A stretch of DNA of 64,000 nucleotides from an uncultured Candidatus Saccharibacteria bacterium (lineage in GTDB: Bacteria > Patescibacteriota > Minisyncoccia > UBA6257 > 1-14-0-10-44-23): positions 40,993-104,992 of the forward strand of contig CAZJVT010000002.1 in the NCBI GenBank assembly GCA_964549935.1, read 5' to 3'. Under the pieces are notes generated by a model. The model saw only the letters and a list, made by a program, of their open reading frames with translations, had not been told where the DNA came from and made no database searches. The position numbers and the translations under genes are program-made. This document shows positions 6,232-7,100 of this stretch, piece after piece; position 1 is the first letter of the stretch, and every line of letters starts with the position of its first letter.

Positions 6232-7100
6232 GTTCGCCGTTTTACTTCGCTCAAGATCGGCACGAGAACCTTTTAGTGCCGCCTATGAGCAAAGTAAAAC
6301 GGCTCAGCGAAGAAAGTGGGGGTAAAAAAGAAATTGAAAACAATACAGCCTCCATCGAGCTGTAAAGCAAGACAGAGGCTATCGCGAAATAAAGGGGGTG
6401 GCGCGACTGGTGGTAAGTCAGGCGCGCCACCCAGCTGGACACTCCCGCAACGGGCGGGTTGCGGCTATGTGCCCCGGTTAGATCAGAAGATCGTCCCCGG
6501 GAGCCGCGCGGTACTCGCTGAACGTGCATCATTCACCCAAGATGCCGTTATGTCCTTTCCTGAAACGCAATGCGAGGATGGCGTTTCATTGACGGGACAG
6601 AAGATGCTGTGAGATGAGCGCAGGCAGTTGCCTTCGCGCGAGAAAGATTCCTCTCACACTCTTCATGACCCCACTACCACCGCGAGGTCATCTGTCCTCG
6701 AGGACGGCCGTTTGCCCGTGGGGGCTAGTACCGTACCTGATCACATGCGTGGGTTCGCAAGCTCACAGGTTCTTAGAGTAGGCTCTTAACCTTCACTCCA
6801 GTGGCATCATGACGAAACCGGTCCTAGGTCACTACTCGTTGAACCCGAGCATGATCTAGCCGTCAGCAGGACTACAGGGAATCGATCGCAGCATCGGCGC
6901 TAGCTGTATCGTCCCGGGGACACCAAAGGAATTGACCCCAGCGCCGTCTCGACGGGATCAAGCACCAGACACAATCGGTGGCTTGGCCTCCGTTGTAACC
7001 CCTGGTAGCACAGGTTACGACATTACTTACCGGTTCCACTGACCGGATTAAGATACAGTATAGCACCATAACCCCTTTTTGTCAAGGGGTCAAAAGTGCT
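6232..7100. other. ~850-nt GC-rich non-coding structured region; candidate large ncRNA or decayed high-GC insert, identity unresolved.
   Basis: No ORF longer than 98 aa, with overlapping short ORFs on both strands. It carries many long GC hairpins, for example GGTGGCGCG...GCGCGCCACC, CCGCAACGGGCGGGTTGCGG and a nested stem right after the topA stop. It ends with the hairpin CCCCTTtttgtcAAGGGG. Confidence 0.4.

Follow-up and report, generated by a model that had tools for sequence, protein, structure and literature searches.

The region between the convergent genes topA and parB in the 64-kb stretch of DNA analysed here (the window) is best explained, in our reading, as the ORF-less cargo of a hypervariable, promoter-equipped parB-topA slot, probably transcribed into an untranslated RNA of ~0.65 kb, and we give this reading an even chance of being correct. 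According to the mechanism that we propose, a conserved sigma-70 promoter located after parB would read towards topA and, in the window genome, through a ~665-nt ORF-less sequence of 57.5% GC; the transcript would end at a GC hairpin followed by a U-tract, a second terminator would serve as backup, and in sister genomes the same promoter would drive unrelated high-GC orphan protein genes. Within this reading we lean towards a cargo, orphan or degenerate, whose structure serves little or no function; a new large ncRNA is conceivable but lacks support. Beside its refinements as a functional RNA or as a dead gene, the remainder of the explanation would be an inert or weakly functional non-coding cargo.

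Non-coding sequence between topA and parB

The slot is flanked on the left by topA (4105-6231, plus strand; Pfam Topoisom_bac, 8e-129, with Toprim and the zinc ribbons of Zn_ribbon_Top1) and on the right by parB (7210-8211, minus strand; Pfam ParB_N, HTH_ParB and ParB_C), which converge on 978 nt of non-coding DNA. The host belongs to the Patescibacteria (CPR); a MAG labelled uncultured Candidatus Saccharibacteria has a TopA with 89% identity to the one encoded here, and MAGs labelled Candidatus Harrisonbacteria are found among the ParB relatives. A preliminary description of this DNA had called the region the largest coding gap of the window, with no ORF over 98 aa, and both statements hold: no other stretch of the window in which stop-free runs stay under 100-150 codons is as long, and the longest ORF in the gap has 98 aa at most. 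The GC content of ~57% given there applies to the core (6385-7050; 57.5%) and not to 6232-7100 as a whole, which has 54.7%; the window averages 50.0% and its other large gaps range from 38 to 52%. Likewise, the region does lie directly 3' of topA, as had been noted, although it is better termed downstream of parB, the minus strand, on which parB and the slot promoter are both transcribed, being the informative one.

Immediately after the topA stop codon there is an imperfect palindrome of 68 nt with 33-nt arms (6236-6303), with folding energies of -42.1 kcal/mol on the minus and -36.8 kcal/mol on the plus strand (z -7.6 and -6.0) and no U-tract on either strand. The region contains no internal or dispersed repeats and has no second copy within the window, which also lacks a parS site. 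A MITE-like nature was considered on account of a 12-nt inverted repeat (6386-6397 and 7072-7083) and rejected, this pair being at chance level among 15 such pairs.

By every test that we ran, the region is non-coding. The distribution of bases over codon phases showed no signal (chi-square p = 0.52 over 666 nt); control pieces of the same length gave p = 1e-12 for topA, 3e-9 for parB and 5e-8 to 6e-5 for three small cassettes of the kind described below. In 150-nt windows the range of phase GC stayed at or below 0.22, as against 0.3-0.5 in the controls. Missing periodicity is inconclusive when taken alone, because the intact cassette ORF at 12188-12520 does not clearly show it either (p = 0.07). 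On the minus strand the three frames hold 14, 9 and 8 stops, a total of 31 against 23.6 +/- 4.5 expected, and 97% of simulated sequences have a longest open run exceeding the 58 codons seen here. Opposite to the promoter, the plus strand has its stops distributed unequally among the frames (4, 5 and 15; p about 0.01), which hints weakly at some remaining frame structure.

No start codon of the region is preceded by a properly spaced Shine-Dalgarno (SD) sequence, the ORFs of the region had no match in Pfam, and tblastx and tblastn comparisons with relatives and sister cargos returned no match. Against 1.84 billion representative proteins, the longest frame retrieved nothing beyond 28 matching residues, inflated by a repeat protein. 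A concatenate of the open segments of all six frames had no match at E <= 0.01 among 5.8 billion proteins, a search of limited power because gene callers called no ORF here in the source genome, so that the collection holds no called ORF from the region even for that genome. An alternative genetic code was rejected: with TGA as a sense codon no frame is open for more than 163 codons, and all housekeeping genes are normal in table 11.

Known RNA families were likewise not recognized. Rfam 15, whose families include RNase P, tmRNA, SRP, 6S, group I and II introns, GOLLD, ROOL, OLE, HEARO and raiA, yielded 10 tRNAs only when the whole window was scanned at gathering scores. A permissive scan of 6100-7300 (E <= 10) returned miRNA and sRNA noise far under the gathering scores, and ARAGORN detected no tRNA or tmRNA in 6000-7400, the ten tRNAs of the window lying elsewhere. 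The earlier inspection by eye, which had found no RNase P, tmRNA, SRP, 6S or group II motif, is thereby confirmed. A match to a known RNA family and frameshifted protein homology, the two findings that the preliminary description had named as arguing against its own proposal, were both looked for, and neither was obtained.

Predicted promoter, terminators and minus-strand transcript

On the minus strand, ~110 nt downstream of parB and pointing towards topA, lies a sigma-70-type promoter (TTGACA-17 nt-TATACT with an extended -10 TG; 7057-7085) that agrees with the consensus at 11 of 12 positions. Only two sites of this quality occur in the 64-kb window, the slot promoter being one of them, and its predicted transcription start falls near 7050. 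The CCCCTT...AAGGGG hairpin in which the region had been said to end does exist (7072-7090); in its extended form (7058-7100, minus strand; dG -22.6 kcal/mol, z -5.7) it overlaps the -35 box and may mark the end of the parB transcript. The stem is not conserved in the promoters of sister genomes.

Two hairpins of terminator type follow on the same strand. Terminator 1 (6387-6432) has a 14-bp GC stem, 6432-6419 with 6409-6396, followed by CC and UUUAUUU (6393-6387); it lies ~665 nt downstream of the promoter, has a dG of -25.4 kcal/mol (z -4.4) and was missed by the automatic scan because its loop measures 9 nt. Terminator 2 (6324-6364), a terminator-like site with a stem at 6364-6344 and a long T-rich tail, UUGUUUUCAAUUUCUUUUUU, is weaker (dG -11 kcal/mol, z -3.2). 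Sequence prediction thus places both parts of a transcription unit, a sigma-70 promoter and an intrinsic terminator, on the minus strand, and the promoter with its tandem terminators makes a discrete, untranslated minus-strand RNA of ~0.65-0.7 kb the most likely product. The RNA is predicted to span ~7050 to 6387, or to ~6335 after read-through, and the body of the putative untranslated transcript, the slot cargo itself, would comprise 6385-7050 (~665 nt, 57.5% GC). The sequence itself shows the non-coding character of the region, the conservation of the promoter, the variability of the slot and the terminator hairpins; activity of the promoter, the end of transcription at 6387 and the lack of translation are inferred.

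It is very improbable, in our judgement, that the transcript instead encodes one or more very small proteins. Two short ORFs are present on the sense strand, one of 24 aa starting with TTG (6974-6900) and one of 26 aa starting with ATG (6666-6586), and neighbouring cassettes do encode small Cys-rich proteins of 74-110 aa; neither ORF, however, has a properly spaced SD, together they would cover less than 25% of the transcript, and no homologues of them were found.

The slot in related genomes and other cassettes of the window

The gene order dprA-topA-parB is conserved among relatives, and what lies between topA and parB varies. The closest relatives found were a GTDB genome by TopA (best identity 89%), a JGI metagenome by ParB (best 60%) and, by ParB in the 5.8-billion-protein collection, locus L002 (best 74%); searches of GTDB, JGI metagenomes and that collection revealed no genome closer than L002. 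In three loci (L003, L004 and L115) the slot is empty, parB and topA being ~60-100 nt apart, and in L107 only a short remnant separates them. A GIY-YIG endonuclease ORF is located at or inside the topA 3' end of L107 (1489-2140) and another upstream of parB in L115, which may reflect homing-endonuclease activity around the locus. L005, L006 and L024 carry relA/spoT between topA and parB; a decayed relA/spoT gene was nevertheless rejected as the origin of the region, which has no tblastx similarity to it.

An orthologous promoter is found just after parB in four lineages, whose ParB proteins are 74% (L002), 67% (L108-110), 65% (L111) and 61% (L112-114) identical to that of the window. TTGACAA and the T/A positions of the -10 box are invariant across these promoters, and a TAAAAT/TTTT block upstream is conserved at the same position in otherwise unalignable surroundings. 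Homology ends a few bases past the -10 box, and unrelated cargos follow: a frameshifted 211-aa ORF with a GC3 of ~0.9 in L002 (6247-6882, minus strand), a 103-aa ORF in L108, an array of orphan ORFs, Cys-rich and HTH_8 proteins among them, in L111, and a 139-aa ORF in L112. In L002 the GC3 phase switches near 6400 and the C-terminal part continues in another frame; either the cargo is decaying or the assembly is wrong here. From L002 and L108, five slot and small-ORF proteins were scanned, with no match in Pfam, PHROG or PADLOC; the 64-aa HTH_8 protein of L111 has a precomputed Pfam match, and the other L111 and L112 cargo ORFs have none on record.

L111 (4480-4720) and L112 (4529-4760) have in common a leader of ~230 nt after the slot promoter, with a terminator- or attenuator-like hairpin, and a hairpin-forming element of ~55 nt, TTCTGAYTGAGA..TTGAGGAATTTGAAGGCCTCA..CCTCGGTCAGAA, which in L111 is repeated before successive orphan ORFs. 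Neither leader nor element matched Rfam, and the repeated leader does not occur in the window.

The cargo of the window showed no nucleotide or translated similarity to 115 related loci, phage or plasmids and none to the sister cargos, and homologues of the insert were absent from the 115 loci, from phage and plasmid collections and from two IMG/VR pattern scans; covariation support is therefore zero. Among ~110 related loci, none has an ORF-free gap of comparable length after parB. A JGI contig (3300071358; ParB 70%) has a gene-free gap of 650 nt at this place. As sister genomes hold different protein cargos or an empty slot, the insert is to be regarded as lineage-specific cargo and not as a conserved RNA gene.

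Every populated relative that we saw holds protein genes in the slot, the ORF-less cargo being the exception, and this speaks for a dead protein-coding cassette, i.e. a former orphan slot gene broken by stops and frameshifts and heading for deletion. The frameshift in the L002 cargo points the same way, as do a GGAGG located ~60 nt past the predicted start and followed by TTG and GTG codons, much like the leader-SD-ORF layout of the sisters, and a folding z-score typical of coding cassettes (see below). Yet a codon-phase signal is missing over the full 666 nt and in the 150-nt windows alike, each of the three sense frames has as many stops as chance predicts or more, and no frame resembles any protein, those of the sister cargos included; decay so complete should, we would expect, also have lowered the GC content and invited deletion in a streamlined genome. 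We consider a dead gene quite unlikely on these grounds. The earlier suggestion of a decayed seventh high-GC cassette is accordingly upheld as far as a conserved slot with orphan genes in sister genomes is concerned, and not as regards decayed coding sequence (p = 0.52, 31 stops against 23.6, no SD-led ORF).

A chimeric join in the metagenome-assembled contig was also considered, and we regard such an artefact as extremely improbable. The source is indeed a MAG contig, of 266,666 nt at NCBI, and the only other contig with an identical parB, L001 (Logan SRR14271332_47927), ends 4 nt past the parB stop, at the start of the slot. The junctions of the region are nonetheless sensible, with an orthologous promoter on one side and the topA 3' end plus terminators on the other, and the slot is populated in several independent assemblies. 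Strains that differ at the slot, or low coverage, could account for the end of L001.

The high-GC cassettes to which the preliminary description had alluded are real, and several of these orphan units have strong promoters of their own. Patches of 60-66% GC are located at 12104-12722, 27300-28190, 34339-34750, 37552-37870, 49179-49726 and 53875-54843. The cassette at 12188-12520 combines a Cys-rich ORF of 110 aa with a promoter (TTGACT-17-TATAAA, preceded by TG), an SD and a terminator; that at 37603-37827 has a promoter (TTGACT-16-TATAAT, preceded by TG), an SD, a 74-aa ORF and a terminator; that at 49329-49634, on the minus strand, has an SD, a 101-aa membrane ORF and a terminator. Further high-GC ORFs are found at 27313-28062 and 53985-54728, and a promoter-like site matching 10 of 12 positions at 54806 on the minus strand. 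Among the patch ORFs scanned (49206-49655 in place of 49329-49634) there was no Pfam, PHROG or PADLOC match except for weak ones on 53985-54728 (MGS-like; phrog_30501). These cassettes and the topA-parB region have their layout in common, with a strong promoter, a high GC content and a terminator formed by a GC hairpin; the region differs in having no ORF.

DUF5671 and ABC-transporter ATPase genes (11153-13313) flank the cassette at 12.1-12.6 kb. Between their counterparts in L111 (1-1996) lies a different orphan ORF, of 94 aa, which suggests that this interval is a second variable cargo slot. Elsewhere in the window, two related elements of ~120-140 nt (8439-8562 and 34932-35075; 71-84% identical) adjoin tRNA-Leu-CAA (8318-8401) and tRNA-Tyr (34793-34877), respectively. 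Both are predicted to form one and the same three-way junction, in which the copies differ by 7-9 compensatory double changes; judged by the G-U pairs, the minus strand, antisense to the tRNAs, is favoured, and neither element matched Rfam or ARAGORN, which makes them a candidate family of small structured RNAs. The first element is flanked by perfect 38-nt direct repeats, CAACAAAAAAGGCGGGCTTTATGCCCGTTCTTTTTGTT, that form terminator-like hairpins (8401-8438 and 8558-8595).

Predicted folding and comparison with known systems

The region as a whole folds with z-scores of -5.0 (plus) and -7.3 (minus), extreme values that are due mainly to the end hairpins at 6236-6303, 6396-6432 and 7058-7100. 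Most of the extreme local z at 6101-6400 stems from the palindrome alone, and on the minus strand the body scores -4.96 with the terminator as against -2.35 without it. With 60 shuffles, the 611-nt core (6440-7050) gave z-scores of -2.35 (minus strand) and -2.59 (plus strand), more negative than any of the 16 housekeeping coding segments matched in length (+1.9 to -1.4). We took high-GC cassette DNA to be the appropriate folding control. Protein-coding cassettes of this kind, from the window and the sister genomes, range from +0.8 to -5.8: in the sisters, -3.2 for the L002 cargo, -5.8, +0.25 and +0.8 for L111 ORFs, -4.0 for the L108 cargo and -2.0 for the L112 cargo; in the window, -3.4, -2.2, -1.7, -1.3 and -0.4. 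The core lies inside this range, and folding therefore does not separate the region from protein-coding cargo. When the predicted RNA is divided, its 5' half (6745-7050) has a z of -0.75 and its 3' half one of -2.8; judged by this folding model, the 5' half is not structured beyond chance. The description of the region as dense in long GC helices is hence borne out in part, by three strong end hairpins and by a core that folds below the 16 housekeeping controls but stays within the cassette range; it does not extend to the 5' half.

A functional, new, large structured ncRNA of ~0.65 kb, selected for its fold and carried as accessory cargo, is in our estimation rather unlikely. In its favour, the region is the longest and among the most GC-rich IgRs of the window, has its own predicted promoter and tandem terminators, is depleted of open frames on the sense strand and, in its core, folds better than each of the 16 housekeeping controls; its MFE and centroid structures mostly agree, and it has kept a high GC content as non-coding DNA in a reduced genome, the other gaps having 38-52%. 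Long GC-rich IgRs are the signature that enriches for structured RNAs in the GC-IGR approach (PMC6429828, PMC8632094). Against it stand the absence of any Rfam family match, a core z of only -2.4, within the range of coding cassettes of high GC, with a z of -0.75 for the 5' half, zero covariation support, with no homologue in the related loci, the phage and plasmid collections or the IMG/VR scans, and the fact that the closest genome, L002, holds a different cargo at the same place. That it would found a new class of ~0.65 kb structured ncRNA, an RNA effector serving as exchangeable cargo of a CPR accessory slot, seems to us unlikely. The lineage-specific large ncRNA put forward in the preliminary description consequently retains the non-coding sequence and the predicted promoter and terminators, and loses ground through a fold no stronger than that of coding cassettes and through the lack of a homologue.

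Returning to the preferred reading, an ORF-less cargo of a hypervariable slot, the conserved promoter after parB, driving unrelated high-GC ORFans, suggests a defined site where tiny genomes try accessory cargo. A functional RNA here would be a rare case of a large ncRNA among the reduced CPR genomes; to our knowledge, almost no lineage-specific RNAs are known in CPR bacteria. The element is a single orphan sequence, and its practical value is that of a pointer, not of a result.

Three kinds of known systems invite comparison. GOLLD and ROOL, which are often accessory, travel on mobile DNA in other phyla. The region resembles them in its accessory nature, and resembles large GC-rich ncRNAs in general (GOLLD, ROOL, OLE, HEARO and raiA, as well as the GC-IGR candidates of PMC6429828 and PMC8632094) in being a long, ORF-free, GC-rich IgR amid IgRs of lower GC, with a promoter and a terminator of its own predicted for it. 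It differs from them in having no covariance-model match, homologue or conserved fold and in a predicted stability not above that of coding cassettes.

An integron-like platform similarly combines one conserved promoter, homology that ends just past the -10 box and exchangeable unrelated cargo beyond it, and the L111 array of orphan ORFs, each behind the repeated ~55-nt hairpin-forming leader, adds to the likeness. In contrast to an integron, no integrase or recombinase is encoded within ~6 kb in the window or 3.5 kb in the relatives, and no attC-type site was identified by means other than a dedicated attC model. An integron cassette array was rejected, no recombinase domain being present in any neighbourhood examined.

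Lastly, strain-specific islets of orphan genes and pseudogene remnants occur between conserved core genes. Such islets share with the parB-topA slot a fixed core-gene junction that in relatives is empty or filled with different ORFans, and a deviant composition; the region differs from them in that it has no ORF or codon structure and is bracketed by an intact conserved promoter and by terminators.
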